Positions 1-55,400 of a stretch of DNA of 64,000 bases are shown here, one piece after another. The first letter of the stretch is position 1. Every line of letters starts with the position of its first letter. This DNA comes from an uncultured bacterium. Lineage in GTDB: Bacteria > Verrucomicrobiota > Kiritimatiellia > CAIKKV01 > CALHGX01. Both the position numbers and the translations under genes were made by a program. The stretch spans positions 106,837-170,836 of the forward strand of contig CALHGX010000009.1 of NCBI GenBank assembly GCA_938031185.1, read 5' to 3'. The notes under the pieces were generated by a model, which was not told the DNA's origin, searched no databases, and saw only the letters and a program-made list of their open reading frames with translations.

Positions 1-569
1 GGCACCCGCTGCACACGGTGAACACCCGATTCGTACCGAAGCACACCATAGGCGCCTTCGCCTTCCACCAAGCAAACAACCTCCTTGTACCCGCCGGTCG
101 CCGAGGGACTGGCGTCTATCATGCCAACGCGCCACCCGCGACCCTCGCAGTACCGCGAGTACATACGGAAGAGATCGGCGGCAAAAAGGGCCGCCTCTTC
201 TCCTCCCGTGCCCGCGCGAATCTCCAGAATCGTGTTCCGCTCCTCTTCGGGATCCGACGGCAGCATCTCCATGAGCAGCTGACGCTCAAGCCGGGGAACA
301 GTCTCCTCCAAACCGCGCAAATCCTCTGTCGCCAACGCCTTGAGATCAGGATCGGTATCCGGCGCGGCGGCCAGCGCCCGACTCTCCTCCAGCGCTCGGC
401 GCTGTTGCTCATATTCCGCTGCCCGATCAAGCAGGCGGCGCAAACGGGCATGCTCCCGCCCCAACTCTCCATAGCGTCGCGGATTGCCCGCAAGGCCAGG
501 ATCGCCGATCTGCCGTTCCACCTCGGCGAGGCGATCTTGGAGTCGCTTGAAATATGCCGGGTCCAGCAT
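1..569 (-). CDS. prfA: Peptide chain release factor 1, N-terminal part (runs off the window start)
   Basis: Reverse-strand translation from the ATG at 569 reads [20 protein letters not shown]...[48 protein letters not shown]...VHRVQRV, which is typical of RF1. The frame is not in the ORF table because it has no in-window stop. Confidence 0.8.
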
Positions 570-626
570 GGAAACGCAAAAAAGGGCCGACCCACCACAG
601 GAGCCGGCCCTTCCGTACAATCCGTT

Positions 627-827
627 CTACTTGCGCGCGTAGCGCTTGCGGAACTGCTCGACGCGTCCGCGGCTGTCCACCAGCGTGGAGCGTCCGGTAT
701 AAAAAGGATGACAAACCGAACACGCGTTCACATGCATGTTCCGGCCGGTGGAACGAACCTTGACCACCGAGCCGCAGGCGCACGTGATCGTCGTCTCGCC
801 ATATGCGGGATGAATGTCTTTTTTCAT
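627..827 (-). CDS. rpmE: 50S ribosomal protein L31
   Basis: The internal Met of ORF 627..983 gives MKKDIHPAYGETTITCACGSVVKVRSTGRNMHVNACSVCHPFYTG (L31 zinc-ribbon motif). Length is about 66 aa. Confidence 0.85.
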   Translation of the reverse strand: MKKDIHPAYGETTITCACGSVVKVRSTGRNMHVNACSVCHPFYTGRSTLVDSRGRVEQFRKRYARK

Positions 828-1070
828 GTGCCTCTGCCTCTCTCTGTGTCCTGTCTTATACATCATGACGGAAATCCCGTGCAAGCACGCTCTTCGGTCT
901 CTCCAACGCGGGATCAGGAGCGTGGAACATCCCGCCAACTCTATGGCCACGCGGAACGCTTCTGACCGCAGAAATAAGGTCAACCGTTGCAGAGACTATT
1001 CCCCTATGAGATCATCGTCTCGGTGAATCAGTGTCGTTCTCAGGAAGTGCTTCGCGAGCTACAGCCGCGA

Positions 1071-1730: not shown

Positions 1731-4116
1731 TCGCCTCGTGAAGCCGGTTGACCGCCTCATCGGTCAAGGTCTTCTCCCGCGAACGATATGTCATGGAGTA
1801 AGCCATGCTCTTGCGCCCCGGACCAAGACGCTCATGCTCGAACACATCGAACAGCCGAACATCAGCCAATTCCGGCGGCGCCGCGCGCTGGATTACTCGC
1901 AGCACCGCTTCATGGGTCACGGTCTGGTTGACCACCATGGCCACGTCACGATCCACGGCCGGATACACGCTCGGGGTCCGCCCCACCGGAATATCGAATA
2001 CGCGCTGCGAGACCATATCGGTCAACAGCTCCATCACGCTCACGGGATCGGCTAGCCGCCACTCTTCGCGCACCCGCCCCGCCACCAGGCCCAGCCGGCC
2101 GCAGGGCTTGTCCCCCAGCCACACGCGGGCGCCAAATCCAGGCTCAAAGAAGAGATCGTCCGCCGGTTCGAGGCGTAAACCGTCCGCTTTGTACGGCCAT
2201 GCTCCCGGCACGCCAATTCCCAACGCATCGGTCACCGCCGCCAACAGCCCTTTGATCCAAAGAAACATCTCCACGGGACTCGGCGCAGCACGCCGAATTG
2301 GGTCGGAGCTGCCAATTGGCCCCATTAAGCCGACGCACAAACGTTCCTCTTCTGTCGGACGGCCCTCCTCGTTAAGAAAGAACGCGCGCCCCATCTCGAA
2401 TAAGGCCGCCCGATCCGCCTGCCGCGCCCGGTTTCGTCCAAGCGTTTCCACCACCTGCGGAATCAGTGAATCGCGAAGCAGGGCATGGTCTGCCGTCAAC
2501 GGGTTCGGCAGACGCACCCTCTTTTCCGCCGGCCCCACACTTATCAGGTCCGCCAGTCGATCGGATATGAAGCTGTAGTTGACGATCTCTGTAAGGCCCA
2601 ATCCGCGAAGCCGTTCGCGGCACACCTGACGGCGGCGAATGACCGTGTCATCCGCGTCGGTCACCAAACGAGCCTGTGGATCGGCGGCTGGAACCGCATC
2701 CAAGCCGTGCACGCGGGCCACTTCCTCGATCAGGTCTGCCTCCTGCTCCAAGTCCACTCGAAATGTGGGCGCTTGCACGACACATTGTTCGTTGTCCCGC
2801 TCCACAACAGGCAACTGAAGGCGTTCGAAGATGGCCGTCATTTCTTCGTTCGGCAGCTCCACACCCAGCAGTTGTCTTGCCCGCGCAAACCGCATCCGAA
2901 CCCGCCGTGGAACGGGCGGCTTTCTGAACACATCAATCACACCGCGCGCCAGAATGCCACCGGAGCAGGCGGCCATCAGCGATGCCGCCCGCCGGCTGGC
3001 CCACTCGATACCGCCAATATCCACCCCGCGTTCAAAGCGATATGACGATTCGCTTGACAGGCCCATCCGTTTCGCCGTTCGGCGTATGTCCGACGCCGAA
3101 AAGCATGCGCTTTCCAACAGCACATTTTGCGTGCTTTCCGTGATGCCGCTGCTCTCGCCGCCCATGATACCCGCCACCGCCACGGGATGCGCGGCATCAC
3201 TAATCACCAGCATCTCCGGTGCCAGTTTGTGCTCCCTGCCATCCAGCGTCATCAGGCGCTCTGCGGCACGCGCCCGCCGCACCACAATCCGTCGCTCCGC
3301 CAGACAATCCAGGTCGAACGCATGCAGAGGCTGCCCGCACTCCAGCATGACGTAGTTGGTGACATCCACAATGTTGTTGATCGGCCGCACGCCAGCCCAC
3401 GTCAGCCGCTGGCGCATCCAGCGCGGAGCCGGTCCCACCGTGGCCCCTTCCAGCAATCGCGCGGTGTATCGCGGACATCCTTCCGGATCCTCGACGTCCA
3501 CTCGGGTCTTTTCGCCAATCGGCCCGCCGCGTTCCTCGAGCGGTATTTCCGGCCACCGCAATGAGCCGCCCAGCAGCGCCGCCACCTCCCGCGCCACCCC
3601 GATCATCGAGAGACAATCCGGCCGATTCGGGGTGACCTCGATTTCCAACACCGTTTCCTGGGGGCCCGCAATGTCGGCAAACGGCGTGCCCGGCTGTACA
3701 TCGCGCGGCAGCACCAAAATGCCGTCATGTCGGTCGCCCAAACCGAGCTCGTCCTCGGCACAGAGCATTCCGTCCGACCGCTCTCCGCGAATGACGGCCG
3801 ACTTGATTTTCATGCCGTTTGCCAGAATGGCGCCCGGCTCGGCCAGCGGCACGCGATCGCCCGGCCCGAAGTTCGTCGCGCCGCAAACCACGCGCCGCTC
3901 TTCCCGTCCGTTGTGCACACGACAAACCACTAGCCGGTCCGCCTGCGGGTGGCGTTCCACCGCCAGGACCTCGGCGACCACAACGCCCGTATAGTCGACG
4001 CCAACGTGAGCAATCCCCTCGACTTCAAGACCGGAAAAGGTCAGCCGGTCGGCCAGTTCGGCCGCCGAAACCGGCACGTCCACGTATTCCTTCAACCAGC
4101 TTAATGGGACTTTCAT
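1681..4116 (-). CDS. pheT: Phenylalanine--tRNA ligase beta subunit
   Basis: 811 aa. MKVPLSWLKEYVDV... N-terminus, tRNA-binding and B3/4 domains, and position directly downstream of pheS. Confidence 0.95.
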   Translation of the reverse strand: MKVPLSWLKEYVDVPVSAAELADRLTFSGLEVEGIAHVGVDYTGVVVAEVLAVERHPQADRLVVCRVHNGREERRVVCGATNFGPGDRVPLAEPGAILANGMKIKSAVIRGERSDGMLCAEDELGLGDRHDGILVLPRDVQPGTPFADIAGPQETVLEIEVTPNRPDCLSMIGVAREVAALLGGSLRWPEIPLEERGGPIGEKTRVDVEDPEGCPRYTARLLEGATVGPAPRWMRQRLTWAGVRPINNIVDVTNYVMLECGQPLHAFDLDCLAERRIVVRRARAAERLMTLDGREHKLAPEMLVISDAAHPVAVAGIMGGESSGITESTQNVLLESACFSASDIRRTAKRMGLSSESSYRFERGVDIGGIEWASRRAASLMAACSGGILARGVIDVFRKPPVPRRVRMRFARARQLLGVELPNEEMTAIFERLQLPVVERDNEQCVVQAPTFRVDLEQEADLIEEVARVHGLDAVPAADPQARLVTDADDTVIRRRQVCRERLRGLGLTEIVNYSFISDRLADLISVGPAEKRVRLPNPLTADHALLRDSLIPQVVETLGRNRARQADRAALFEMGRAFFLNEEGRPTEEERLCVGLMGPIGSSDPIRRAAPSPVEMFLWIKGLLAAVTDALGIGVPGAWPYKADGLRLEPADDLFFEPGFGARVWLGDKPCGRLGLVAGRVREEWRLADPVSVMELLTDMVSQRVFDIPVGRTPSVYPAVDRDVAMVVNQTVTHEAVLRVIQRAAPPELADVRLFDVFEHERLGPGRKSMAYSMTYRSREKTLTDEAVNRLHEAIKKVLRDELAAEIRES

Positions 4117-8309: not shown

Positions 8310-8474
8310 ACTAGCCTTCCTCCCGGGGATGAATATGCCGTTACCCTACTGGCGATGCTTCGATCCGTCAACGCCAAAATCGGCGCCGACAACTTTTTCC
8401 TGTAACCAAGCACAGCAGGATCCAGCACGGAAAAGCCGTTGCGAAAGCCTGGCCTCCCGGCATAGAATGATCGA

Positions 8475-9236
8475 GTGAGCGACACCCCCCATGAGGGCTT
8501 GAACGCGGGAACAGCCCTGATTGTGGGCGCAAGCGGAGCTATCGGTTGCGCCGTGAGCGTGACCCTTCACGCAGCGGGCTTCCGCGTAGCCCTCCTTGGT
8601 CGGAATTCCGAACGATTGGCGCACGCCGCGCGGCAGGTGAATCTGTCGGCAACGCCGCCGCTCTGCACCATCTGCGACGTGACAGACCGGCCACGGATTG
8701 CCCGGGCCATCCACCCCATCCTGCAGGCCCTTGGAACCTTGGATGTGCTGGTCTTGGCGGCCGGCATCAACGTGACGGATCGAAGCATGCGCTCCCTGGA
8801 TCCGACTGACTGGGACCGCGTTCTGGCCGTCAATCTGACCGGTTCCTTCAATGTTGTGCAGGCCGTCCTGCCCCACATGCGGGAAAAGGGATCGGGAACA
8901 ATTATTCAAATCTCCTCCCTGGCGGCCATTCGCCCCAGCGCCATCGCTGGGGCGGCATACTCGGTATCGAAGGCCGGCCAGGGCGTCCTCAGTGCCTGTA
9001 TCGGCCGAGAAGAACGCGGCCGCTGCATTCGCGCGACCACGCTGTATGTCGGTGAAACGGATACCCCCCTGCTGCAAGGGCGAGCCGACCGCCCAGGGGC
9101 CCCGAATGAGGGACGCCGCCAAATGATCCTGAAGCCCGAAGACGTCGCCGCCGCGGTCCGCTACATCGCTACCCAGCCTCCGCGGCTCCGCATCCCGGAA
9201 ATGGTTCTGATCCCTTCCGTGGACGATTACGCGTAG
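8475..9236 (+). CDS. Short-chain dehydrogenase/reductase (SDR) family oxidoreductase
   Basis: TALIVGASGAIGCAV Rossmann motif, YSVSKAG catalytic motif, 253 aa. Confidence 0.8.
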   Translation: MSDTPHEGLNAGTALIVGASGAIGCAVSVTLHAAGFRVALLGRNSERLAHAARQVNLSATPPLCTICDVTDRPRIARAIHPILQALGTLDVLVLAAGINVTDRSMRSLDPTDWDRVLAVNLTGSFNVVQAVLPHMREKGSGTIIQISSLAAIRPSAIAGAAYSVSKAGQGVLSACIGREERGRCIRATTLYVGETDTPLLQGRADRPGAPNEGRRQMILKPEDVAAAVRYIATQPPRLRIPEMVLIPSVDDYA

Positions 9237-9274
9237 CAAGCGAGCGCGCCTGTTGCCATGCAAGGAAAGGCCCC

Positions 9275-11005
9275 ATGACCAACGGCGGCGAAATCATCGT
9301 CTGCGCGCTGCAGGAACAGGGAGCCGATACGGTTTTCACACTCCCCGGATCGGGCATTCTGTCCATCCTTCAAGAAGCAGCGCGGCGGCTGCGCGTCATT
9401 TCCGGACGCCACGAAACGTCGGTTGTGCAAATGGCCGAAGGATGGGCACGAATACGGCGCGCGCCGGGTGTGGCCATTCTTCCCGAAGGCCCCGGCCTCG
9501 CCAACGGCATCGGTGGGCTGGCCTCGGCCTTCGCCGAGAGAACGCCGCTGGTCGTCCTGAGCGCGCTCCCCCCCCAAGCGGAACTGGGTCGGGGCGCGCG
9601 GCAGGAATTGCCACAAGTGGAGCTCTGTGCTCCCATCTGCAAGTCCTCAATTATGGTGACCCGGCCCAGCCAAATCGCCCAGGCTCTGGCCGATGCTTTT
9701 ACACAAGCTCGAGTCGGCGTACCGGGTCCCGTCCATCTGGCGCTCCCCCTGGATGTGATCGAAGCACGCGGACCAACATCACCCCAGGCGATGAAGCCCG
9801 CATCGCCCGCAGAGCAAGAAAACATCGCTTCCCCAGACGCTATTGCCGAGGTCGTACGCCTGCTCGCCGGCGCCCGGCGGCCAGTGGTCGTCGCAGGCAG
9901 CCTGGCCTACTGGCATCGTGCCGACCATCTCCTACGCGCCTTCATCGAACAAACCGGTTTGCCGCTTTTCACTGTGGAACGGGCAAGAGGACTTCTGCCC
10001 GATGCGCATCCGCTCTGCTTCGGGGATGCCTACGCCACCGTTAACCACGCGGCGGCCCTGCTCCAGCACGCCGATGTGGTGCTGCTTCTGGGCGAACCGC
10101 TCGACTGCCGATTCGCCTACGGCCGCGCCTTTGGCCGGTCTCGCATCCTCCATCTCTGGGCCAAATCACGTCCGTCCGCCATGAGCGGCGAGAACGAAAT
10201 CCTGCGCGTTGCCGGCCGGTGTGATGCCGCGCTGGAAAGCCTCCTGCTTCAGGCGGCATCATTCGCTTGGCCCCCGCGCACGGACTGGCTTGCCGCTCTG
10301 CAAGCCGCGCGCGAGGCTCATCATCAGATGGTCCATCGCTCGCCAACCTTCACGCGAAGCGATGCCGTGGACTACGGCCTGCACCCCGTCGAAATGACCC
10401 GGATGGTGGCCGCCGTCCTCCCGGAAAATGCTTTGCTGGCATTTGACGGCGGCAACGTGTCTGGCTGGGCGCGTACCGTCCTCTCCGCTCGACGCCCAGG
10501 CGATTGGCAACTCAATACGGTCTTCGGACAGATGGGACCGGGCCTGTCCTACGCGCTTGGCGCCCGCGTGGCGGAGCCCCAAACTCCCGTGTTCCTGATC
10601 ACCGGCGACGGGGCCTTCGGGATGAGCATCGGCGAAATCGAAACGGCGGTCCGCCACGATCTGCCCGTGGTCGTCATCGTTGGAAATGATGCGGCATGGG
10701 GTATTGAGCATCATTTCGAAAGGGTGCTCTACCCGCACACCCCCTCCTCAATCATGACGCTGAACCGGACGCGTTGGGACCTTGTAGCCGAAGCCCTCGG
10801 CGCGCATGGCGAGTTCGTTGACCATGTCGAACAATTACCGCCAGCATTGGAACGGGCGGTCTCAAGCGGACGCCCGGCGTGCGTCAACGTGCAGTTGCGA
10901 TGGGCCCCCAGCCCGCTCGCGCGAATGTTCACCGGCATTCTTCGGCGCGAGCGACGTCAAGTCGCGTCCCCCGGCGCCGCCAGCAATAGGGAGGAGTCTG
11001 CCTGA
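9275..11005 (+). CDS. Thiamine-diphosphate-dependent enzyme, acetolactate-synthase-like (three-domain Pyr/central/PP)
   Basis: 576 aa. Has the N-terminal TPP pyrimidine-binding region and the C-terminal GDGAFGMSIGEIETAVRHDLPVVVIVGNDAAWG TPP-binding motif. Confidence 0.85.
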   Translation: MTNGGEIIVCALQEQGADTVFTLPGSGILSILQEAARRLRVISGRHETSVVQMAEGWARIRRAPGVAILPEGPGLANGIGGLASAFAERTPLVVLSALPPQAELGRGARQELPQVELCAPICKSSIMVTRPSQIAQALADAFTQARVGVPGPVHLALPLDVIEARGPTSPQAMKPASPAEQENIASPDAIAEVVRLLAGARRPVVVAGSLAYWHRADHLLRAFIEQTGLPLFTVERARGLLPDAHPLCFGDAYATVNHAAALLQHADVVLLLGEPLDCRFAYGRAFGRSRILHLWAKSRPSAMSGENEILRVAGRCDAALESLLLQAASFAWPPRTDWLAALQAAREAHHQMVHRSPTFTRSDAVDYGLHPVEMTRMVAAVLPENALLAFDGGNVSGWARTVLSARRPGDWQLNTVFGQMGPGLSYALGARVAEPQTPVFLITGDGAFGMSIGEIETAVRHDLPVVVIVGNDAAWGIEHHFERVLYPHTPSSIMTLNRTRWDLVAEALGAHGEFVDHVEQLPPALERAVSSGRPACVNVQLRWAPSPLARMFTGILRRERRQVASPGAASNREESA

Positions 11006-12684
11006 TGTCCCCCCCGCCCCGTACGGACGACCGGCCGGACGCCGTGATCATCGGGTTCCACGAGCCTGATCTCGATCGCCTCATGGAAGTGCGCCGACGA
11101 ATGGCAGATTCCTCCGGCGCATTCCGCCAAATGGCCGGCAGTGTTTTTCGCGTCAAAGGCCACTGGCTCCATCACAGCGAGCTGCTGAATGCCGCGGCAA
11201 GCGAAGCCGTCGGCCGCCATCCGAACCTAAGCCCCATGACTCTGCCCTCCCTCGCCGCATGCTATCTCTTCTCGTACCTCGCCCGGCGCGCTTTTCGAGT
11301 GGAACTCGTGAACTCCTTCGATCGGGACCGCGAACGCCTGGAAGAAATCCTTCGCCAAAGGCCGCGGGCCGCCGTGGTGACCACGACATTCTACTTGGAG
11401 CCGGAGCCGATTCAGGACGTCATCCGGCATCTGAAGGCGCATTCGCCGGACACGCTCGTGATTGTTGGCGGCCCTTTCATTCATGCGCTGTGCTCAAGCG
11501 GTCCCGCCGAAGCGCAGGATCGCGTGCTTCAATCCATCGGTGCTGATATCTACATTCACAGTGCACAGGGAGAAGCCACGCTCGCCCGCGTCATCCGTGA
11601 ACTGGCCGCGGGGGCCCTCCCTTCGGCTGGATCCTCGGCATGGCTTCAGATTCCAAATCTCGTTCTTCCGCCCGCTGCTCGAGGCCGCGACGCCTTTATC
11701 CGGACGCCGTTGGCTGTCGAGGACAATGACATGGACAGCGACGTCGTGGATTGGGACGGCATTCCTGCGCGCGTCGTCGCGCCCACCGCCCTTCTTTTTT
11801 CCACCCGCAGTTGTCCGTTCCGATGCTCCTTCTGCCGCTATCCAAGCTTGGCGGGATCTGTGCGAATGACCAGCATACCCGTCATCGAACACCAGATGAG
11901 CCGGCTTCATGCCAAAGGGGTCCGAACGTTGATCTTCCCCGACGACACTCCCAATGTGCCCCGCAATCGGTTCAAGGACCTGTTGCGCATGATGATACGC
12001 CGGGGCTTTGGCTTTTCCTGGTTCTCCAACCTCCGCTGCGCCGAGGCGGATGTCGAGACGTATGATCTGCTGGCCGCCGCCGGTTGCCGCGGCGTTTTTC
12101 TTGGAATCGAATCCGCGTCCCAGACTCTATTGGACAACATGAACAAGCATTCCACCGTGGAGGCCTATCGCCGAGGCATTCACGAATTGCGCCGACGCGG
12201 CATTCTCTCCTACGCGTCCTTCATCGTGGGCTTCCCGGGCGAAACAGACGACACGGTTCGCGAGACCATTGCTTTCGTAAACGAGGTTCAGCCGGACTAC
12301 TATCAGGTGCATCTCTACTACCACAGCCGTCTTGCCCCCATTCACGCCCATGCTCGGGAATTCGGCTTGCGCGGCGGCGACTATAGTTGGACACACCGCA
12401 CTATGGACTGGCGGCGCGCCGCCGACTGGGTGGACGCGTTTCGCGAAGACATTCGCGGGCCCGTGTTGGGTACCAGTTATCTCTCAACCCTGTGGTTTAT
12501 CGCCTACCTTCACGGCCTCGGCGCCCCCTTGCCGATAGTCCGCAAGTTCATGGCTGCCAGCGCGGACATGATTCGGCGCCAGCGTGCCCTCTGGACCGGC
12601 GGTCACCTCTCCGAAGAGATCCCGCCAGCCGTCGTCTCCGCCGCCGGCCAACTGGTTTCTGCCATCACGGAGGCGCAACGATGA
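11005..12684 (+). CDS. Cobalamin (B12)-binding domain radical SAM enzyme (class B rSAM), copy 1
   Basis: An N-terminal B12-binding-like domain is followed by the CPFRCSFC radical SAM cysteine motif and GIESAS/GFPGET elements. The ATG overlaps the upstream stop (TGATG at 11003-11007). Confidence 0.85.
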   Translation: MSPPPRTDDRPDAVIIGFHEPDLDRLMEVRRRMADSSGAFRQMAGSVFRVKGHWLHHSELLNAAASEAVGRHPNLSPMTLPSLAACYLFSYLARRAFRVELVNSFDRDRERLEEILRQRPRAAVVTTTFYLEPEPIQDVIRHLKAHSPDTLVIVGGPFIHALCSSGPAEAQDRVLQSIGADIYIHSAQGEATLARVIRELAAGALPSAGSSAWLQIPNLVLPPAARGRDAFIRTPLAVEDNDMDSDVVDWDGIPARVVAPTALLFSTRSCPFRCSFCRYPSLAGSVRMTSIPVIEHQMSRLHAKGVRTLIFPDDTPNVPRNRFKDLLRMMIRRGFGFSWFSNLRCAEADVETYDLLAAAGCRGVFLGIESASQTLLDNMNKHSTVEAYRRGIHELRRRGILSYASFIVGFPGETDDTVRETIAFVNEVQPDYYQVHLYYHSRLAPIHAHAREFGLRGGDYSWTHRTMDWRRAADWVDAFREDIRGPVLGTSYLSTLWFIAYLHGLGAPLPIVRKFMAASADMIRRQRALWTGGHLSEEIPPAVVSAAGQLVSAITEAQR

Positions 12685-14084
12685 AGCTAGCCCTGGTGCA
12701 TCTGGCTCCGGATAGCACCGAGCCGCCGTTGGGGCTGGCCTCGATGGCGGCCTATCTGCGCAGCTATGCCGACTTCCATGGCGCCGTCATTGTGGATGCC
12801 GACCACCCGCTCGACACTCTGCTCAAAACCAAGCCGGACCTCGTTGGCATATCCGCCCTTACCTACCAGTACCCCGCCGCGCGCGCCCTGGCCGCCGAAC
12901 TGCGAGCCGCAATGCCACGCGTTCCCTTGATCCTCGGCGGCTACCATATCTCCGTCTTCCCCGACCACTTGGCCGCCACAGCATTCGACGTGGGCGTCAT
13001 CGGAGAAGGGGAGCAGACGCTGTGCGAACTGGTGAAGCTCTTTCAACGGGACGGCTCGCTGGCCCCGGCCGGGCTTCGCCAAATCCACGGTCTTGTTTTT
13101 CGCAATGAACAAAGGGCCATGGAGCTGACGCCGCCCCGGCCTCTGATTGAGCCGCTCGATCAGATTCCCATGCCCGCCTGGGATCTGTTCCAGCGCCGAA
13201 GCGACTACCTCGCCCCACGCCGAGGCTTGTTCCACCGACTGGGCGTTTATCCGGCCATGCTAACTTCTCGCGGCTGTCCCTATCAATGCGCCTTCTGTTC
13301 GCCCACTCGTTTTTGGGGTCATTTTCGCCTCTTCTCCGCCGAACGGGTTGTGGAAGAAATGGAATGGCTTGCCCGAACATGCCAAGCTGATGGACTGTTC
13401 ATCTGGGACGATCTCTTCACCGTAAATCGCACTCGTCTGCGGCGCATCGCCGATCTGTTCGAAGCGAACGGCCTGCATCGCCGTCTTCGTCTCTGTATTT
13501 TCGGGCGCACCAACCTGCTCGACGAGGAAATGGCTGACTTGCTCCAACGTCTGCGCGTCGAAGGCATCTTCTTCGGCCTCGAGTCGGGTTCTCAACGCGT
13601 TCTCGACTATCTGAAGAAGGGCACCGTCCGTGTAGAGAACAACTACCGCGCCCTGCGACTTTGCAAGGCGCGCGGCATGCGCACCGTCGGCACCCTGATC
13701 ATCGGCGCCCCCGTTGAAACAGAGGAGGATTTGGAGGACACGCGTCGGCTCGCCACGTCGCCAGACCTTGACTATGCGATGATCTGCCACCTCACCCCGC
13801 TGCCCGGCACGGAGGTCTGGGAAGAGGCTAGGCACGACGGCCTCGTGTCCAACAAGCCAGATTTTGACTTTGCCTCGCTGGACGGATGGCACTTCCGCGA
13901 ACGATTCGTCATGACGCGCCATGTCTCGCCGGCCGCGCTTCGCGCGTGGTATGAGCGGCTCCGCCGGGAAGCCAACCACCGGACGGATCGCCCGAAACTG
14001 GGCTGGCGAGAACTACGCCATCTTTTGAATCGCCGCCTGTGGAACACGGCGGCACGGCAGTTCCTGCAGCGGGCCCGCCGCTAG
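12681..14084 (+). CDS. Cobalamin (B12)-binding domain radical SAM enzyme (class B rSAM), copy 2
   Basis: Taken from the internal start MKLALVHLAPD.... ATGA overlap with the copy-1 stop (12681-12684). B12-binding-like N-terminal domain, CPYQCAFC motif, GLESGS. Confidence 0.85.
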   Translation: MKLALVHLAPDSTEPPLGLASMAAYLRSYADFHGAVIVDADHPLDTLLKTKPDLVGISALTYQYPAARALAAELRAAMPRVPLILGGYHISVFPDHLAATAFDVGVIGEGEQTLCELVKLFQRDGSLAPAGLRQIHGLVFRNEQRAMELTPPRPLIEPLDQIPMPAWDLFQRRSDYLAPRRGLFHRLGVYPAMLTSRGCPYQCAFCSPTRFWGHFRLFSAERVVEEMEWLARTCQADGLFIWDDLFTVNRTRLRRIADLFEANGLHRRLRLCIFGRTNLLDEEMADLLQRLRVEGIFFGLESGSQRVLDYLKKGTVRVENNYRALRLCKARGMRTVGTLIIGAPVETEEDLEDTRRLATSPDLDYAMICHLTPLPGTEVWEEARHDGLVSNKPDFDFASLDGWHFRERFVMTRHVSPAALRAWYERLRREANHRTDRPKLGWRELRHLLNRRLWNTAARQFLQRARR

Positions 14085-14090
14085 CTGTTC

Positions 14091-14906
14091 CTACCACCAG
14101 CGACGAACGGAATCGCACGGCTCCTCCGCGCCCGGCGGCGGCACGCGAAAAATCACGCGCGCCGGATTCCCCGCCACCACCGCATAGGGCGGCACATGGT
14201 GCCGCACAATGGAGCCGGCGGAAACGGTCGCACCGCGCCCTACATGCACCCCGGGAAAGATCATGCATCGCATGCCGATCCAGACATCGTCGTCAATACG
14301 GACTTCCCGCACCTCCTCGTCCGCGGGCGGCGCGCCGCGACGGCGAGCCATCGGGTCGGTGACGTGGCCGCTGGAATCGAACACCACCACTTCGCCGGAT
14401 AGCATACAGTTGCGCCCGATCGTGATCCGGCGGCCGGCGATGAACACACACCCGTGCCCGATGCCTGTGCCATCCCCGATTTCAATCACCGGACGGACCG
14501 CGAACCGGGCCCCAAAGGTAAAAGTGCATTTGCCGTCCACCCACACCCGATCCCCAACAATCAAATCCCCGCGTCCCTGGATCCAGTGGACGAAGACGCC
14601 CGTGTGCACATCCCGTCCGCACTGTTTGCAGTAGGCCTTGAAGATGGGCTCGCAAATCAGCGCGCGCTTGAGGAAATGCCAGACAGCCCGCCCCGCAACG
14701 AGAAGCGTTCTGAAAGTCCGTCCCACCCAGCGAGGCACGGGAAGGGAGATAAATTCCCGCGCATGATAGAGCCGCCGCGCGCGGCGGGCCAAAGGCCGGT
14801 CCGACCGCGCCAGACGCTGAAGCCATCCACGCCTTATCGGCATGCCTTGGGGCGCCGAAGAACAACTGCCATTTGACTCGGAGGCGCCTCGTGTATCGTC
14901 CGCCAT
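14091..14906 (-). CDS. Hexapeptide-repeat (left-handed beta-helix) acyl/acetyltransferase
   Basis: Tandem hexapeptide motifs (IGDGTGIGHGCVFIAGRRITIGRNCMLSGEVVVFD...VWIGMRCMIFPGVHVGRGATVSAGSIV). 271 aa. Confidence 0.75.
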   Translation of the reverse strand: MADDTRGASESNGSCSSAPQGMPIRRGWLQRLARSDRPLARRARRLYHAREFISLPVPRWVGRTFRTLLVAGRAVWHFLKRALICEPIFKAYCKQCGRDVHTGVFVHWIQGRGDLIVGDRVWVDGKCTFTFGARFAVRPVIEIGDGTGIGHGCVFIAGRRITIGRNCMLSGEVVVFDSSGHVTDPMARRRGAPPADEEVREVRIDDDVWIGMRCMIFPGVHVGRGATVSAGSIVRHHVPPYAVVAGNPARVIFRVPPPGAEEPCDSVRRWW

Positions 14907-16965: not shown

Positions 16966-17706
16966 TCAATCCCCCTCCCCTTCGGCGACCGCTTGCAGAG
17001 CGCGCACCGAGGTCAGCCCTTCATACAAAGCCTTGCCGACGATCGCTCCCGCCAAGTTGGGCAGCCTCAATGCCATCAAACGCCGCACATCCTCCACAGA
17101 AGAAACGCCACCGGAGGCGATCACAGCGCAGGACAGCCCCCCGGCCACTCGCTGTATGAGTTCCACAGCCGGACCCTGCAACATGCCGTCCCGTCCTGTT
17201 TCCGTATAAATCACAGTATGCACCCCTGCCGCGGCCACATCGCGACCGAGCTCCCATGGCGCCACATCAGTCTCCTCACGCCATCCGGCGGTTTGCACAC
17301 GCCCGCCGCGGGCATCAATGCCCACCACAAGGCGCGCTCCAAAGCGTTCCACCAATGCCCTCAGACCCGCCAAATCCCGCACTGCCCTCGTCCCGAGAAT
17401 CACCCTGTCAACGCCGGCGGCAAGAAGGCTCGAGATGTCTTCATCCGTACGCAGCCCCCCTCCCGCCTGAATCGGCACCGGCACCCCAGCGGCAATGGTC
17501 GCCACCACCTCTCGATGAACCGGCCAGCCCTCGAAAGCGCCATCGAGATCCACCACATGCAGTCGCGTGGCTCCCTCCGCCACCCAGTGGCGCGCCATGC
17601 TCAGCGGGTCGTCCGAGTAAACAGTGGCATCTTCCGCCCGCCCCTGCCTCAACCGGACACAGCGGCCGTCTTTCAAATCAATCGCCGGTATGATCTCAAA
17701 TCTCAT
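16966..17706 (-). CDS. hisA: ProFAR isomerase of histidine biosynthesis (1-(5-phosphoribosyl)-5-[(5-phosphoribosylamino)methylideneamino]imidazole-4-carboxamide isomerase)
   Basis: MRFEIIPAIDLKDGRCVRL... and a C-terminal GGVSSVEDV (beta/alpha)8-barrel signature. 246 aa. Confidence 0.85.
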   Translation of the reverse strand: MRFEIIPAIDLKDGRCVRLRQGRAEDATVYSDDPLSMARHWVAEGATRLHVVDLDGAFEGWPVHREVVATIAAGVPVPIQAGGGLRTDEDISSLLAAGVDRVILGTRAVRDLAGLRALVERFGARLVVGIDARGGRVQTAGWREETDVAPWELGRDVAAAGVHTVIYTETGRDGMLQGPAVELIQRVAGGLSCAVIASGGVSSVEDVRRLMALRLPNLAGAIVGKALYEGLTSVRALQAVAEGEGD

Positions 17707-19934
17707 GCCATGTTATTCTGGCCGCGCGCCCAGGCGCGAATCTCGTCGGAAAGCCCCTCCACCCGCCGCACGCGACACTTTCGCTCGCCCGCCTCTCCCG
17801 GCAGGATCACTTCATCCCCCTGCCGCCGTCCGGTCAGTCGCCGTCCCACTTCACTCTCACAGGAAACAATATGCCGCTCGGGATCCTGATCCCAAACGCC
17901 GAGAATCACGTACACTTCTGACTGGCCGTCGGCCCCCTCCACCGTTACGGTCGTTCCCATGCCGGCCGTTTCGGTGTGGTCCCGCTCGAAATCCGTGCCG
18001 CGAACCGTTTTGAGCGCCTCCTCCAACTCTTCCTGGCGGCGCATCAGAATCCGCTGCATGTCCTTCGCCGCCTTGTATTCGAAATTTTCGCTCAAATCCC
18101 CATAGCTGCGGGCATGCGCGATGTCACGACTGTTCTGCGGAATTTCCTCATTCACCAGCCGCTCCAGTTGGCGCTGTTTTTCCCGATACGTTCGCCATGA
18201 CGTAAATCGTACCGCCGCCGCATCGTCCGCCCCCGACGCGTCCTCGAGCAAACGGCTCAGTTCCGGGCATAGCGCCACCATTCTACCCGTGAGCGTCTGG
18301 GCGTCGAGTGCGAGACGTCCCGCCTTCTGCCGAACCCGCCGCAGCATTTCCTCGCGCTGCAATGGCGTCAGCAACGGCAACACCGCCTGAAGCCAGTCGC
18401 GCTGCACGCACAGCTCCGCCAACTGGTTGGCCGCGCGGAGCCGGTCGCCCGAAAAACTGCCTTCCAGACAGTCCAAGACGAGAAAAGGCAAGTCGGCGGG
18501 AGTACCCACCCCCTGTTCCGTGATCGCCGCAGGCCGCCGCGCCAGACTGTAAAGCATTTCCACCGTCGGCCGACGCGCCGCCCAGTGCTCCCGAATCACC
18601 TTCCAGCAACGCTCGCCCTGCCCGGCGCGTTCCGCAAACTCCATGAGTTCGTTGTAAAGCGTCATGTTCGCCAGTGGCAGCGTGCCGGCCACCGCGGACA
18701 TGGCCGCCTCAGCATCCGAGCGGAACAATAGTTCCAAGAATCTCCGAAATCGCCGTGGGGCCAGCTCGCGGCCCGCTGCGGCTAGCGTACCCGGGTCGAA
18801 AAAACGCCGGAGCCGCTCGCTCCCGGCGGAAACATCGTCCGCCACGCCCCATTGATAGACCTGCAGCAGCCCCCGAGCCGTCCACCCCAGGTCACGCTCG
18901 CTTGCCGAGAGCACATATGTCAGCCGCCGTGCGATGGTCGCCCGCTCCGCGTCGCCGAGGGCGTCCGGGGCCACCGCCGCCTCCAGCGTCTCCAGCCGTT
19001 CAAGGACCCGCTCCGGCAGCCGTTCCGCCGCCAGGGCCGAAAACCATTCGGCGTCAAACCCCGGTGCCTTTGCGAGCAATTCCACGGCATCGGAGCGCCG
19101 GGCCGGAATCCGTACCAGAGGATCGTTTTTCAGCGCCTTCCGCGCTGCATCCCAGAAACGCTTCCACTCGTCCGGCTTGACGATGCCCTCGCACAACAAC
19201 TCCTGCAACCGGGGCACGGACATTGCGCCAAAACTGCGCAACGCGAGTTTGACGATTTCGTCCGGACGGTCCCTGACCAGCGCGGTTAGGGACTCCGGAT
19301 CCTTGTGCCAGCGAACGCAAAAGTGATCCTCGCTCACGGGGTGGAGCGACTCCAACGCATACGCGAAGGCCATCTCATGCCCCTTCTTCCGGCTGAAATC
19401 CACCGTCACGCGCTCATAGTAGTGGTCCACCTCGCGAACCACTCCAAAACCCCACGTCTTCTCCAGGAAAAACATACCCGGCGCCAGCCTCCGCAAGAAC
19501 ATCAGTCGATGCAGGCATTCCTTCAAGGGACGCCCCGTCTCAAAGCCGGCGTGCCCCAGATGTTTCCGGCCAACGACATCCTTCCGGAAAGCCGCTTGCA
19601 ACACCGTCTCACAATGGGCTCGAAATGCTCGATCGTCCGCCAAGCGGTCGGCCCGACGCAGGAGCAGGCGCAACAAATCGTCACCCCGGCCTCGCTCCGC
19701 CAATGCATCCTCCACCAACGCAGAAAGGCTGTCCGCCTCCTCCGGCTTTCCGGCCTCCGCCAATGCCGCCAAGTCCTCTTCAACCGCCTCAATGGGAAGC
19801 GTTCCCTGCTCCATCCGTTCCAACAGGCGCTGTTCAATATCCTGGATTGATGGGGTTTCCATATCCTCCTCGCCGCCAATCTCGCCCACACACCTTCCCT
19901 TGCGATCTTTCGACTCGACACAGCAATCTGCCAT
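17703..19934 (-). CDS. Large protein with a C-terminal GreA/GreB-like transcript-cleavage-factor domain (GreA/GreB family fusion)
   Basis: The C-terminal ~150 aa (ARSYGDLSENFEYKAAKDMQRILMRRQEELEEAL...VYVILGVWDQDPE...) resemble the GreA coiled-coil tip plus FKBP-like domain. The N-terminal ~590 aa are helical with no recognised domain. Confidence 0.65.
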   Translation of the reverse strand: MADCCVESKDRKGRCVGEIGGEEDMETPSIQDIEQRLLERMEQGTLPIEAVEEDLAALAEAGKPEEADSLSALVEDALAERGRGDDLLRLLLRRADRLADDRAFRAHCETVLQAAFRKDVVGRKHLGHAGFETGRPLKECLHRLMFLRRLAPGMFFLEKTWGFGVVREVDHYYERVTVDFSRKKGHEMAFAYALESLHPVSEDHFCVRWHKDPESLTALVRDRPDEIVKLALRSFGAMSVPRLQELLCEGIVKPDEWKRFWDAARKALKNDPLVRIPARRSDAVELLAKAPGFDAEWFSALAAERLPERVLERLETLEAAVAPDALGDAERATIARRLTYVLSASERDLGWTARGLLQVYQWGVADDVSAGSERLRRFFDPGTLAAAGRELAPRRFRRFLELLFRSDAEAAMSAVAGTLPLANMTLYNELMEFAERAGQGERCWKVIREHWAARRPTVEMLYSLARRPAAITEQGVGTPADLPFLVLDCLEGSFSGDRLRAANQLAELCVQRDWLQAVLPLLTPLQREEMLRRVRQKAGRLALDAQTLTGRMVALCPELSRLLEDASGADDAAAVRFTSWRTYREKQRQLERLVNEEIPQNSRDIAHARSYGDLSENFEYKAAKDMQRILMRRQEELEEALKTVRGTDFERDHTETAGMGTTVTVEGADGQSEVYVILGVWDQDPERHIVSCESEVGRRLTGRRQGDEVILPGEAGERKCRVRRVEGLSDEIRAWARGQNNMA

Positions 19935-26609: not shown

Positions 26610-27791
26610 ATGCTTCACATCCGAACCATAAGATGGGTGCCGCAAAGCAACGAGGGCCTCATCCCCGGACAGATTGAATTCATTGACCAGACCCGCTTGC
26701 CGCTTGCGCTGCGCAAGGTGCGCACAGCCGATCCGGACGTGATCTTCAGGGCCATACGCGCCCTTCAAGTGCGCGGGGCGCCCGCCATCGGCGTGGCAGC
26801 CGCCATGGGGGTCGCCGCCGCTGCGCAGCGGGTCCGATCGAAGAGCGGTAACGCGGTGGCCGAAGCGGCCTGTCAAGCCGCCCGTCGTCTGGCGACCGCC
26901 CGCCCTACGGCCGTCAATCTGTTTCAGGCGCTCGACCGCATGCGGCGCACAGCCCGACGTTATCGGCGCCTGCCACCAGACCAGTTGAAGGAACTTCTCG
27001 CCAGTGAAGCCGTGGCTATTTGGCAGGAAGACCGTGATATGTGCCGCAGAATCGGCGAGAGCGGTTTCCCGTTGATTCGCAACGCGCGCCGGGTGCTGAC
27101 GCACTGCAATGCCGGCGCCTTGGCCACGGCCGGGCTTGGCACCGCCTTGTCGCCGCTTTACGTCGCCCGAGAGCAAGGGTGCCGAATCCATGTTTACGTG
27201 GACGAGACGAGGCCCCTGCTCCAAGGCGCCCGTCTGACGGCATGGGAACTGACTCGAGCCGACATTGAGGTTACGGTGATTTGCGACAATATGGCCGCAT
27301 GGCTCATGCAACGGGGGCAGATTGATGCGGTCCTGGTCGGAGCGGATCGCATCGCCCGTAACGGAGACACCGCCAACAAAATCGGAACCTACGGGCTGGC
27401 CGTGTTGGCCCACTTCCATGGAATTCCCTTCTACGTGCTGGCACCAAGCACCACCGTGGATTTTTCGGCAAGGGCGGGACGTGACATCCCCATCGAAGAG
27501 CGCGGATCGGAAGAGGTTTCCATGATGGCCGGTCGCCGATTGATCCCCCGTGCGGCCACAGCCATCTCCCCGGCCTTCGACGTGACGCCCGCCCGTCTTA
27601 TTACGGCCGTTGTCTGCGAACGCGGCGTTCTCAAACCGCCATATACGCGTTCCTTGAGCCGTGCGCTGGAAAAACGGGAGCGACAGCAAAAAAACTGTAG
27701 TCCTTCTTTGGCGGGCGGCCCCCTCCCGAGAGACAGGCCCAAAGCGCCCGATCAACGGCCGGGCCACCAGGTCATGCCGTTGCAGGACTGA
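26610..27791 (+). CDS. mtnA: S-methyl-5-thioribose-1-phosphate isomerase (eIF-2B alpha/beta/delta family)
   Basis: LQVRGAPAIGVAAAMGVA...TVNLFQAL...THCNAGALAT...VGADRIARNGDTANKIGTY. Confidence 0.8.
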   Translation: MLHIRTIRWVPQSNEGLIPGQIEFIDQTRLPLALRKVRTADPDVIFRAIRALQVRGAPAIGVAAAMGVAAAAQRVRSKSGNAVAEAACQAARRLATARPTAVNLFQALDRMRRTARRYRRLPPDQLKELLASEAVAIWQEDRDMCRRIGESGFPLIRNARRVLTHCNAGALATAGLGTALSPLYVAREQGCRIHVYVDETRPLLQGARLTAWELTRADIEVTVICDNMAAWLMQRGQIDAVLVGADRIARNGDTANKIGTYGLAVLAHFHGIPFYVLAPSTTVDFSARAGRDIPIEERGSEEVSMMAGRRLIPRAATAISPAFDVTPARLITAVVCERGVLKPPYTRSLSRALEKRERQQKNCSPSLAGGPLPRDRPKAPDQRPGHQVMPLQD

Positions 27792-31357: not shown

Positions 31358-31382
31358 TCCGCAGCAGAAACTTTCCGCTCGT

Positions 31383-31559
31383 TCAGCGCAGCAAGACGCC
31401 GATCGTAATCCCGAGCGCGATGAAAGCCAAGTAAACCAGCGATCCCATGGCGCGGAACTTGAACAGGATCAGATTCACTTCAACCGGCGCCCGGCTAAAA
31501 ATCAGCACCAGCACCGACAAGGCCATGATCAAGAGGGCATACAACACACGCTTTTGCAT
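31383..31559 (-). CDS. Small (58 aa) two-TM membrane protein, possibly LapA/DUF1049-like; absent from the ORF table (<60 aa)
   Basis: Reverse translation MQKRVLYALLIMALSVLVLIFSRAPVEVNLILFKFRAMGSLVYLAFIALGITIGVLLR. It fills the gap between coaC and the kinase gene. Confidence 0.4.
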   Translation of the reverse strand: MQKRVLYALLIMALSVLVLIFSRAPVEVNLILFKFRAMGSLVYLAFIALGITIGVLLR

Positions 31560-31577
31560 ACCGGCTCCTATTCCTCA

Positions 31578-47295: not shown

Positions 47296-47299
47296 CGCC

Positions 47300-52770: not shown

Positions 52771-52850
52771 CACCCACCCCCCTTGCCGGCGATATTCGCA
52801 AGGACAACCAGGTGCGCTTCGACCGCCGTCGTCCACGGCCGTGCCGGTGC

Positions 52851-53405: not shown

Positions 53406-53411
53406 GGCTAT

Positions 53412-54284: not shown

Positions 54285-54299
54285 CCCCCTCGCCCTTTC

Positions 54300-55349: not shown

Positions 55350-55400
55350 CGCGGTCTACTTTCAGCAGCGAAATATGGCCTTGTCAACCACGCATTTGAC

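Follow-up and report, generated by a model that had tools for sequence, protein, structure and literature searches.

A five-gene cassette encoding a ThDP enzyme and two class B radical SAM enzymes, with orthologues in AmcBFGH biosynthetic clusters

What might be made by closely packed genes for an SDR, a three-domain ThDP (TPP) enzyme, and two cobalamin-dependent radical SAM (rSAM) enzymes? The genes lie within a 64-kb stretch of DNA, the whole of which was analyzed and is called the window here. The original prediction described a translationally coupled operon of four genes, in which a ketol made by the ThDP enzyme would be methylated by the rSAM enzymes and reduced by the SDR, and it rightly stated that no characterized pathway matches this combination. 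Comparison with related metagenomic loci (designated by L numbers) shows that the locus is a real, non-housekeeping biosynthetic cluster and bears on what its enzymes may do.

RESULTS AND DISCUSSION

Organization of the locus

Judged by homology, the locus is a unit of five genes, not four, with a convergent hexapeptide acyltransferase gene belonging with the four + strand genes of the window's ORF listing (Table 1). The start of the SDR gene is GTG 8475, or possibly TTG 8499. As originally described, the four genes are co-directional, with 38 nt between the SDR stop and the ThDP gene start, a TGATG overlap at the ThDP gene/gene 3 junction (TGA 11003-5, ATG 11005-7), and an ATGA overlap at the gene 3/gene 4 junction (ATG 12681-3, TGA 12682-4). 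The Shine-Dalgarno-like sequences AAGGAAAGG, GGGAGGAG, and GGAGG lie upstream of the three internal starts (ThDP gene, gene 3, and gene 4). Overlaps of 1 and 4 nt are common in operons of the window (pheS/pheT, 4113-4116; hisA/GreA-like, 17703-17706), so those of the cassette are evidence of co-transcription and coupling, and to take them as a sign of fixed stoichiometry, as had been done, was to overread them.

Table 1. Features of the cassette and its upstream region
Feature	Coordinates	Strand	Properties
Divergent intergenic region, thrS vs operon	8310..8474	n/a	One sigma-70-like match
SDR, classical, FabG-like	8475..9236	+	253 aa; adh_short, GASGAIG + YSVSK
ThDP enzyme, three-domain, ALS/OXC/HACL/BAL superfamily	9275..11005	+	576 aa; TPP_enzyme_N/M/C
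PhpK-like class B radical SAM enzyme (gene 3)	11005..12684	+	559 aa; TIGR04479, CPFRCSFC
Second class B radical SAM enzyme (gene 4)	12681..14084	+	467 aa from ATG; B12-binding + Radical_SAM
Hexapeptide-repeat (left-handed beta-helix) acyltransferase	14091..14906	-	271 aa; Hexapep

The acyltransferase gene converges on the operon, with 6 nt between its stop and that of gene 4, and is co-transcribed with unrelated genes (SDR2, an M16 peptidase, hisA, and a GreA-like gene). Its product matches PF00132 (32.5 bits) and PF14602 (32.3 bits; gathering score, 27), and its best NCBIfam matches are the maltose, WbbJ, and Vat O-acetyltransferases, none of which reaches its cutoff. We count it as the fifth member because it is orthologous and positionally conserved in relatives: orthologues are present in seven loci (54 to 65% identity), with AmcH adjoining in all seven, and the convergent rSAM/hexapeptide junction is kept in L002, L161, and L165.

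Because each of the five genes has orthologues in other loci (42 to 65% identity), we regard them as real genes and not chance ORFs. All five ORFs are full length, free of frameshifts and stops, with catalytic motifs retained, and the base composition of the cassette is that of its flanks. The cassette is surrounded by thrS, pheST, and hisA. Upstream of the operon, the sigma-70-like sequence TTGCGA-18-TAGAAT (8439-8468) is a candidate promoter only, since promoter-like matches in the intergenic region show no excess over shuffle expectation. An Rfam scan found no riboswitch or other Rfam family within the window.

The SDR and the ThDP enzyme

The SDR is of the classical type, with a match to adh_short (PF00106, 143.7 bits), a cofactor motif of the TGxxxGxG type, and a catalytic YxxxK. 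Its best NCBIfam matches, PRK07454 and 3-ketoacyl-ACP reductases, are all under cutoff. Orthologues at nine other loci (49 to 56% identity) usually adjoin the gene for the carrier protein AmcB.

The ThDP enzyme has the three domains (TPP_enzyme_N/M/C at 108, 67, and 119 bits in Pfam), the catalytic Glu (in RHE), and the GDG-X-N(N/D) motif (GDG...ND, as GDGAFG...GNDAAWG) of the ThDP decarboxylase/carboligase superfamily. It reaches no NCBIfam cutoff; the best match is PRK05858 (382/587, score/cutoff), and the equivalogs for oxalyl-CoA decarboxylase (OXC) and 2-hydroxyacyl-CoA lyase (HACL) score 231 to 241 bits (cutoffs, 557 to 739) and 264 bits (cutoff, 600), respectively. Its top-scoring relatives in the PDB are OXC and HACL (~204 to 210 bits), ahead of benzaldehyde lyase (BAL; 194) and catabolic acetolactate synthase (ALS; 177). 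By these scores OXC and HACL are at least as near to it as acetolactate synthase is; of its first description as a three-domain, ALS-like protein, the architecture stands, while "ALS-like" was too specific. Orthologues in nine loci share 42 to 52% identity, and the loop at residues 482 to 494 of the window protein has been rebuilt.

One could suppose that these are housekeeping genes, namely, a branched-chain amino-acid AHAS with BchE-/MiaB-type rSAM enzymes and FabG, as the generic source annotations of homologues ("acetolactate synthase large subunit," "radical SAM protein") and the neighboring thrS, pheST, and hisA would allow. However, the proteins score far below each equivalog cutoff that would apply: 109 to 127 bits against 222 to 313 for FabG, 245 against 538 for IlvB (TIGR00118), 96 (gene 3) and 164 (gene 4) against 481 for BchE, and 56 and 27, respectively, against 251 for MiaB/RimO. 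Moreover, ilvN and ilvC were not found nearby, the ThDP gene is flanked by SDR and rSAM genes, and orthologues sit in biosynthetic clusters. A housekeeping role is thus exceedingly improbable and effectively refuted: the ThDP protein is not IlvB, and the rSAM enzymes are neither BchE nor MiaB-like.

Two class B radical SAM enzymes

Gene 3 matches Radical_SAM (PF04055) at 90 bits, carries its CxxxCxxC motif at residue 270, and matches the B12-binding domain (PF02310) at 24 bits, under the gathering score of 32.1. This weak domain is taken as genuine because the AlphaFold (AF2) model of the protein (pLDDT, 94.8) aligns full length with cobalamin-dependent rSAM enzymes, among them the structures of TsrM, CysS, TokK, and OxsB with cobalamin bound. 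The best Foldseek match is TsrM (E value, 5e-23; TM, 0.58; full length), followed by AprD4, CysS, MgmA, TokK, and OxsB, with 14 to 18% identity in these structural alignments. As modeled, gene 3 has the class B fold with an N-terminal Rossmann-type cobalamin-binding domain.

The best family match of gene 3 is TIGR04479 (PhpK/BcpD), at 500.9 bits (cutoff, 600) over profile positions 2 to 502 of 504. The Amc-linked clade as a whole scores 499 to 555 bits, and relatives linked to NRPS/PKS genes score 578 to 607. On these scores, we place gene 3 as a diverged member of the PhpK family, a neighborhood that the original prediction, correct as to class B, did not recognize. Orthologues share 48 to 59% identity, and wider members of the family (36 to 41%) adjoin NRPS/PKS megasynthases, which marks it as a natural-product tailoring family.

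It is also important to consider whether the PhpK-like enzyme could be a P-methyltransferase, as in phosphinothricin biosynthesis, and the locus part of a phosphinate or phosphonate pathway. The end-to-end TIGR04479 match is in keeping with this, and several homologues are labeled "P-methyltransferase" by JGI. Nevertheless, gene 3 and its whole Amc-linked clade are under the curated cutoff, and the neighbors of its relatives are ACP/KS/ligase or NRPS/PKS genes. Neither PEP mutase, already noted as absent, nor any other phosphonate gene was found by Pfam in the scanned ORFs of the window, and the genes called in related loci include none either. With the cutoff missed and the phosphonate gene context absent, we rejected this reading as highly unlikely. 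Gene 3 is probably a C-methyltransferase, predicted to methylate carbon rather than phosphorus.

Gene 4 matches both the B12-binding domain (66 bits; gathering score, 32.1) and Radical_SAM (77 bits), with the CxxxCxxC motif CPYQCAFC at residue 199, and it meets no NCBIfam cutoff; orthologues in L002, L006, L161, and L167 share 53 to 59% identity. The claim that both rSAM enzymes pair such a motif with a B12-binding domain was therefore sound, although for gene 3 the domain emerged through AlphaFold and Foldseek. By analogy with known enzymes, two class B rSAM enzymes in tandem suggest multiple methylations.

Orthologous loci and their Amc partners

Orthologues of the five genes occur in metagenomic loci of Lentisphaerae, Verrucomicrobiota, Planctomycetota, and Acidobacteriota. 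At six of the eight loci with adequate flanks they lie inside an AmcBFGH cluster, and they are interleaved with AmcB/F/G/H in L002, L006, L009, L161 to L163, L082, L102, and L165. The Amc proteins of relatives were called by NCBIfam equivalog cutoffs (score/cutoff: AmcH, 526/370; AmcF, 460/325; AmcG, 119/80; AmcB, 115/80). Their roles have been established in vitro (Hibi et al. 2023; PMC10698177): a 2-oxoglutaryl-ACP ligase, a carrier protein, and a KS-CYF pair build a cyclopentane ring derived from 2-oxoglutarate. Relatives also encode a class I methyltransferase whose two best matches, 2-ketoarginine C-methyltransferase and ApyS, are alpha-keto-acid beta-C-methylases (PMC11117315); its gene overlaps or abuts the TPP gene in L003/L008, L161 to L164, and L002/L006. 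The conserved family core, as read from orthology, comprises the SDR, AmcB/F/G/H, the hexapeptide acyltransferase, the ThDP enzyme, and this alpha-keto-acid-type C-methyltransferase.

In the window, L007, and L167, the TPP gene is instead followed directly by the PhpK-like rSAM gene. The order TPP-PhpK-like-B12rSAM recurs in L167, L002, and L006, and L167 repeats it with a 4-nt overlap at both junctions. The rSAM genes are missing from L162 and L163 and the TPP gene from L009 and L082, so the genes do not form an obligate unit; the rSAM enzymes are, on this distribution, optional add-ons across the cluster family. As L162/L163 and L009 show, the SDR, TPP, and both rSAM genes do not always travel together.

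A tblastn search of the 64-kb window with the Amc proteins of L002 and L006 (E value of ≤1e-3) gave no hit, and the window also lacks the class I methyltransferase of related loci, so the link to 2-oxoglutarate is by association only. A cispentacin-type five-membered-ring cluster is present in relatives and not in the window. The Amc-less version is also found in L003/L008 (a Verrucomicrobiota MAG, with 7- to 10-kb flanks), which speaks for a module that works on its own or in trans. Of the columns in which every other orthologue has the same residue, 11 to 12% are changed in the SDR, TPP, and PhpK-like proteins of the window, the highest of the members, and 4.8% in the hexapeptide protein, as conserved as any orthologue. 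The higher values may be due to a long branch, to weaker constraint, or to a change of substrate.

With Amc genes lacking in the window and L003/L008, a self-contained small-molecule pathway comes to mind, in which ThDP carboligation would give an alpha-hydroxyketone, the rSAM enzymes would methylate unactivated carbons, and the SDR would reduce the ketol. Such ketol methylation-reduction chemistry, as first proposed, would be plausible. The tightly coupled trio of L167, the shift of the SDR gene to the operon head in the window, and the many lineage-specific changes, including the rebuilt TPP loop, which are compatible with a new substrate, all point the same way. We still hold this pathway to be rather unlikely, given the AmcBFGH setting of most adequately flanked loci and the constant AmcH neighbor of the hexapeptide gene; in addition, Amc genes may lie elsewhere in the genome, outside the window.

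Alternatively, the cassette could be a drifting, nonfunctional remnant of an ancestral L002/L161-type cluster whose Amc and methyltransferase genes have been deleted. The layout is indeed that of L002/L161 minus AmcH-G-F-B and the methyltransferase, and the top fraction of changes at invariant columns in three of the proteins would fit decay. This is improbable, as the reading frames are intact and the catalytic motifs (Fe-S, ThDP, and SDR), Shine-Dalgarno sequences, and start/stop overlaps are all kept, and the hexapeptide protein shows no such excess of changes. Furthermore, the same methyltransferase-less order is found in L007 and L167 at only 42 to 59% identity, a conservation that requires long-term purifying selection.

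A proposed role for the cassette

Taken together, we tentatively favor a five-gene tailoring cassette homologous to part of a widespread biosynthetic cluster family, and from the gene content, orthology, synteny, and fold classes described above we propose a possible substrate, order of steps, and product. The substrate of the ThDP enzyme would be an alpha-keto acid, for which 2-oxoglutarate or one of its derivatives is the most plausible candidate; the enzyme would act at its C2 carbonyl and decarboxylate it, with carboligation or without. Cyanobacteria offer a precedent, an ALS-family ThDP enzyme that is specific for 2-oxoglutarate (PMC10418658). In this PVC-superphylum genome, the gene for the PhpK-like rSAM enzyme stands where relatives have the class I methyltransferase gene, immediately behind the ThDP gene and translationally coupled to it. 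The two cobalamin-dependent rSAM enzymes would place methyl groups on carbons out of reach of a nucleophilic SAM methylase. The SDR would reduce a keto group, and the hexapeptide transferase would O- or N-acylate the product or transfer it to an acceptor, possibly a glycan. Glycan genes (glycosyltransferase, epimerase, or Wzy) flank L002, L006, L007, and L162, but not L009 or the window cassette. The cassette would then belong to an undescribed, widespread pathway family that elsewhere sits beside ring-forming polyketide-like machinery missing here.

Comparison with known systems

The nearest described clusters are the minimal-type cispentacin/coronafacic-acid-like ones (PMC10698177), whose AmcB/F/G/H are interleaved with cassette orthologues in relatives but absent from the window. 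The searched text and supplements of that survey (PMC10698177) make no mention of ThDP, hexapeptide, or radical SAM partners.

The PhpK/BcpD P-methyltransferases share with gene 3 end-to-end homology, the class B fold, the CxxxCxxC motif, and a cobalamin-type Rossmann domain at the N terminus; gene 3 differs in its score under the family cutoff and in its ThDP, Amc, or SDR gene neighbors in place of phosphonate genes. The architecture of both rSAM enzymes is also that of CysS and TokK/ThnK, which carry out sequential methylation of carrier- or pantetheine-linked substrates, and of the sugar/phosphonate C-methylases GenK and Fom3. Unlike the carrier-linked setting of CysS/TokK-type enzymes, the window encodes no carrier protein.

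The ThDP enzyme has the three-domain architecture, catalytic Glu, and GDG..ND motif of OXC, HACL, BAL, and ALS, but its C-terminal 34 residues are unaligned and no family cutoff is met. At the position of GDYEE in OXC, which holds the active-site Tyr-Glu, and of GAFQE in HACS, it has GARQE. A ThDP carboligase and a reductase, YerE/YerF, lead to the branched sugar yersiniose. Although the window operon, unlike that setting, has no adjoining nucleotide-sugar genes, it resembles YerE/YerF in that an ALS-like ThDP enzyme and a reductase are paired.

Operon organization and surroundings

The four plus-strand reading frames of the cassette occupy exactly the positions of the original prediction, and the 38-nt spacing between the SDR and ThDP enzyme (TPP) genes and both claimed stop/start overlaps were found as well. 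Pfam upheld the domain calls: SDR for the first gene, all three ThDP-enzyme domains for the second, and Radical_SAM with B12-binding domains for the last two (rSAMs). A Shine-Dalgarno-like, purine-rich element lies upstream of every internal start. The fixed stoichiometry that had been read from this layout does not follow, as 4-nt overlaps also join pheS/pheT and hisA to the GreA-like gene. Such overlaps are common in the window and point to an operon without implying any given stoichiometry. Immediately downstream of the second rSAM gene (B12rSAM), and convergent to it, lies the hexapeptide acyltransferase gene (Hex), with 6 nt between the stop codons. This gap has no terminator hairpin, so the transcripts of the two operons must overlap or end within the opposite gene.

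A tight minus-strand operon runs from the GreA-like gene through hisA, an M16 peptidase gene, and a second, unrelated SDR gene to Hex as its final member. Divergent from the cassette operon is thrS, which heads the block thrS-rpmI-rplT-pheST. The remaining window contains housekeeping genes and a distant LPS/glycan region. Scans of the window returned zero Rfam matches for riboswitch or other RNA control, no tRNA, and promoter and terminator counts that did not exceed shuffle expectation. Horizontal transfer was considered and rejected, as the five genes do not differ from their flanks in GC or GC3. Taxonomy was read from SecA, whose named relatives (68-70% identity) belong to MAGs of Lentisphaerae, Kiritimatiellae, and Verrucomicrobia; the source is accordingly an uncultured PVC bacterium.

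Table. Cassette genes and other features of the window
Position	Strand	Feature	Observations
18-965	+	Long putative ORF	No Pfam match
8475-9236	+	SDR	
9275-11005	+	ThDP enzyme (TPP)	
11003-11007		TGATG overlap	TPP stop and next start
11005-12684	+	First rSAM (PhpK-like, PhpKl)	
12681-12684		ATGA overlap	Third and fourth genes
12681-14084	+	Second rSAM (B12rSAM)	
14082-14093		Convergent stops, second rSAM/Hex	
14091-14906	-	Hexapeptide acyltransferase (Hex)	
17703-19934	-	GreA-like gene	Unusually long, 743 aa; HTH_GRAD plus GreA/GreB N- and C-domains (Pfam tags, contig record); heads the operon ending in Hex
27752-31357	-	Ser/Thr protein kinase	1201 aa; leucine-rich repeats
31098-32465	+	Long putative ORF	No Pfam match
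39.6-42.8 kb		Aconitase and NADP-isocitrate dehydrogenase	
43313-44998	-	Third, orphan class B radical SAM gene	561 aa; CGNRCAFC at residue 207; B12-binding 35 bits; best family match KedN5, only 71/700 bits (score/cutoff); directly upstream of the bona fide aconitase and NADP-isocitrate dehydrogenase genes
45982-59262		Loose envelope/glycan region	30-45 kb from the cassette operon; GDSL esterase with CBM9, membrane Acyl_transf_3, two GT4 glycosyltransferases, alpha-amylase-family protein, GDP-mannose 4,6-dehydratase, Wzy_C/TPR protein, Kdo transferase
53217-54509	+	Long putative ORF	No Pfam match

Enzymes of the cassette

The ThDP enzyme retains the catalytic Glu and the GDG...ND motif but falls below every curated family cutoff (best PRK05858, 382/587 bits, given here as score/curated cutoff; biosynthetic AHAS, 245/538). 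Among solved structures, oxalyl-CoA decarboxylases and 2-hydroxyacyl-CoA lyases/synthases are closest (about 210 bits); benzaldehyde lyase follows at 194 bits, ahead of catabolic ALS at 177 bits. The three domains expected of an ALS-type enzyme are present, but ALS specificity is not borne out, and "ALS-like" is a statement at the superfamily level only. The SDR is FabG-like, and Hex is Maa/WbbJ/Vat-like. That the cassette serves a housekeeping role is scarcely credible, as every NCBIfam equivalog cutoff is missed.

Both predicted CxxxCxxC clusters, CPFRCSFC and CPYQCAFC, were found. The B12-binding domain of the first rSAM lies under the Pfam threshold (24 versus 32 bits). A structure model of this protein (pLDDT 94.8, built from a 55-sequence alignment) aligned along its entire length with structures of class B rSAMs that contain cobalamin (TsrM, E 5e-23; AprD4, CysS, MgmA, TokK, and OxsB), which confirms the proposal that both rSAMs carry such a domain. 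As a class B enzyme the second rSAM is generic, its best match being BchE at 164/481. Neither protein is MiaB-like, and both miss the cutoffs of the housekeeping families.

The profile of the PhpK/BcpD P-methyltransferases, TIGR04479, matches the first rSAM from end to end, at 500.9 bits against a cutoff of 600. To our knowledge, the PhpK family is known so far for P-methylation only. On the same profile, the Amc/ThDP-linked clade scores 499-555 bits, and remoter relatives score 578-607 bits. The latter, with 36-41% identity to the window protein, have NRPS or PKS megasynthases as immediate neighbors; they come from Acidobacteriota, Myxococcota, and other sources, among them soil contigs (related loci L016, L019, L020, L087, and L089, and by ORF length L092 and L099). 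No phosphonate genes lie beside any PhpK-family relative in the loci inspected. Given these neighbors, P-methylation is not transferable to the window protein, and the family is best seen as a natural-product tailoring family. The NRPS/PKS-linked members also suggest that the "P-methyltransferase" annotation is widely over-transferred. The norcoronamic-acid rSAM Orf29 (PMC7277169) was considered as a PhpK-clade member and rejected, as it lies outside the clade.

The same observations make a phosphinate pathway very improbable, since phosphonate context is lacking and the PhpK-like score is under the family cutoff. In agreement with the first reading, no PEP mutase turned up when about 50 ORFs of the window were scanned with Pfam. 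The aconitase and isocitrate dehydrogenase genes prompted the idea of phosphinothricin-like TCA steps, which was dropped because both products clear the thresholds of authentic TCA enzymes (915/612 and 710/490).

Related loci and the Amc link

Contigs of relatives were retrieved, and orthologues were scored by tblastn. Orthologues with 42-65% identity exist for each of the five cassette genes, and the closest PhpK-like homologues (48-59% identity) come without exception from metagenomes or MAGs. We regard these statements of orthology and synteny as solid. In the two fullest loci, L002 and L006, a class I methyltransferase gene (MT) is placed between TPP and the PhpK-like gene, and an additional block encodes an ACP, a KS, a 180-200-aa protein, and an adenylating enzyme. 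These pass the NCBIfam equivalog cutoffs for AmcB (115/80), AmcF (460/325), AmcG (119/80), and AmcH (526/370). AmcH loads 2-oxoglutarate onto AmcB, and AmcF-AmcG perform a single malonyl extension followed by cyclization to a five-membered ring; orphan "minimal-type" clusters with these four amc genes only have been noted (Hibi et al., PMC10698177). The two best matches of MT, 2-ketoarginine C-methyltransferase and ApyS, transfer methyl to the beta-carbon of an alpha-keto acid (PMC11117315).

Table. Gene content of related loci
Locus	Source	Gene content	Side observations
L002, L006	Metagenomes	Ten genes, full set	
L161	Metagenome	Without PhpK-like gene	Cluster otherwise complete; AmcF (KS) orthologue at 17337-18452 called as two fragments (194 + 112 aa), which may be a frameshift, pseudogene, or assembly error
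L162	Thermoguttaceae MAG	SDR, AmcBFGH, Hex, TPP, MT; rSAM absent	
L163	Metagenome	SDR, AmcBFGH, Hex, TPP, MT; rSAM absent	
L009/L104	Bryobacteraceae	Without TPP and second rSAM	
L082	Metagenome	SDR-PhpKl-AmcBFG(H)	
L102	Metagenome (peat)	TPP between AmcB and AmcF	
L165	Metagenome	Hex-AmcH-G-F, PhpKl convergent to them	
L003/L008	Verrucomicrobiota	TPP-MT-PhpKl-SDR only, within 7-10 kb flanks	URO-D-family protein (weak Pfam match) at 13036-14088, two genes downstream of the block
L007	Lentisphaerae	GT4-TPP-PhpKl, then end of contig	
L167	Metagenome	TPP-PhpKl-B12rSAM, both junctions 4-nt overlaps, like window	

The combination of ThDP enzyme, C-methylase and/or class B rSAMs, SDR, and Hex around AmcBFGH is shared by at least four phyla, namely, Lentisphaerae, Verrucomicrobiota, Planctomycetota, and Acidobacteriota. 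Judged by gene content, SDR, AmcBFGH, Hex, TPP, and MT form the conserved core of the family. SDR, TPP, and both rSAMs do not always travel together: TPP-PhpKl-B12rSAM is repeated in L167, but rSAMs are optional, with none in L162 or L163. Hex adjoins AmcH in 7/7 other loci carrying it, and the convergent rSAM/Hex junction is found again in L002, L161, and L165. The window resembles an L002/L161-type cluster that lacks AmcH-G-F-B and MT, and its SDR gene has been relocated to the operon head; tblastn detected no trace of AmcH-G-F-B or MT within the 64 kb. A fully autonomous ketol pathway, as originally proposed, overlaps our main explanation and differs only in denying the Amc link; we consider it rather unlikely.

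Two side observations concern these relatives. In three peat metagenome loci (L083, L101, and L102), the PhpK-like alignment consists of two blocks with ~300 nt unaligned between them, which suggests an insertion after about residue 190. The URO-D family, represented downstream of the L003/L008 block, includes corrinoid-dependent methyltransferases.

Intact cassette or decaying remnant

The cassette could also be a decaying remnant, and the SDR, TPP, and PhpK-like proteins do show the highest share of any member of changes at columns invariant in all other orthologues (11.8%, 12.1%, and 11.4%, respectively); the value for Hex, 4.8%, is unremarkable. The TPP changes include a rebuilt loop at residues 482-494. 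D394N in an FDGGD motif is also among the changes in the proteins encoded at 8475-12684. Against decay, all ORFs are intact, and cofactor and catalytic motifs, Shine-Dalgarno sequences, and coupling are kept. With identity as low as 42-59%, L007 and L167 still keep the MT-less TPP-PhpKl(-B12) order, which implies long-term selection, and the Amc-less form occurs independently in a Verrucomicrobiota MAG. This pattern is better explained by a shift in substrate or a long branch than by decay, with relaxed constraint also compatible, and we hold the remnant explanation to be improbable.

Proposed pathway and comparison with known systems

In the most far-reaching reading, which we hold to be clearly less likely than not, the SDR/ThDP/PhpK-like/B12-rSAM/Hex cassette would be an autonomous PVC pathway to a poly-C-methylated, alpha-keto-acid-derived ketol or acyl unit. 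In our main explanation, the substrate would be 2-oxoglutarate or a related alpha-keto acid, which the ThDP enzyme would decarboxylate, possibly with carboligation. The PhpK-like enzyme, at the usual place of MT, and the second rSAM may then add methyl groups to non-nucleophilic carbons, the SDR would reduce a carbonyl, and Hex would acylate the product or transfer it to an acceptor. As a mechanism, this general scheme has, in our estimate, somewhat less than an even chance of being right.

Several observations lead us to propose a 2-oxoglutarate-type substrate. The ThDP gene is translationally coupled to the alpha-keto-acid C-methylase gene in most relatives, AmcH is a 2-oxoglutarate ligase, and the C2 carbonyl of alpha-keto acids is the point of attack for ThDP enzymes of this superfamily. 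A 2-oxoglutarate-specific member of the ALS family is also known (PMC10418658). As for the acceptor, the flanks of L002, L006, L007, and L162 carry genes for a glycosyltransferase, Wzy, PMT, or UDP-GlcNAc 2-epimerase, whereas glycan genes are absent beside L009 and the window cassette; glycan decoration is thus only a possibility.

Taken together, the cassette is a genuine, phylum-spanning, uncharacterized biosynthetic unit with key partners missing from the window locus. If the most far-reaching reading is true, the product class of the cassette has no characterized example, and the PhpK-like clade is the first carbon-directed branch of its family. The cassette and its Amc-linked versions would then form a large, phylum-spanning, undescribed biosynthetic family that combines ThDP chemistry and radical methylation with the formation of cyclopentanes in a type II PKS-like manner and possibly decorates cell-surface glycans. 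Characterization would link the orphan minimal-type Amc clusters, flagged in 2023, to a product, supply a non-phosphorus substrate for the PhpK family, and show how class I C-methylases and radical methylases replace each other. The Amc-less version in the window offers a natural dissection of the pathway, and the defined set of about 10 genes is of practical value for heterologous expression.

In the searchable literature, follow-ups to the Amc paper included, we found no description of the ThDP/MT/rSAM/hexapeptide-containing Amc subtype or of the Amc-less form, in keeping with the earlier failure to match the combination to any characterized pathway. Even so, each component is a member of a known enzyme superfamily, and the cluster type, a minimal Amc set with tailoring genes, is already anticipated in general terms.
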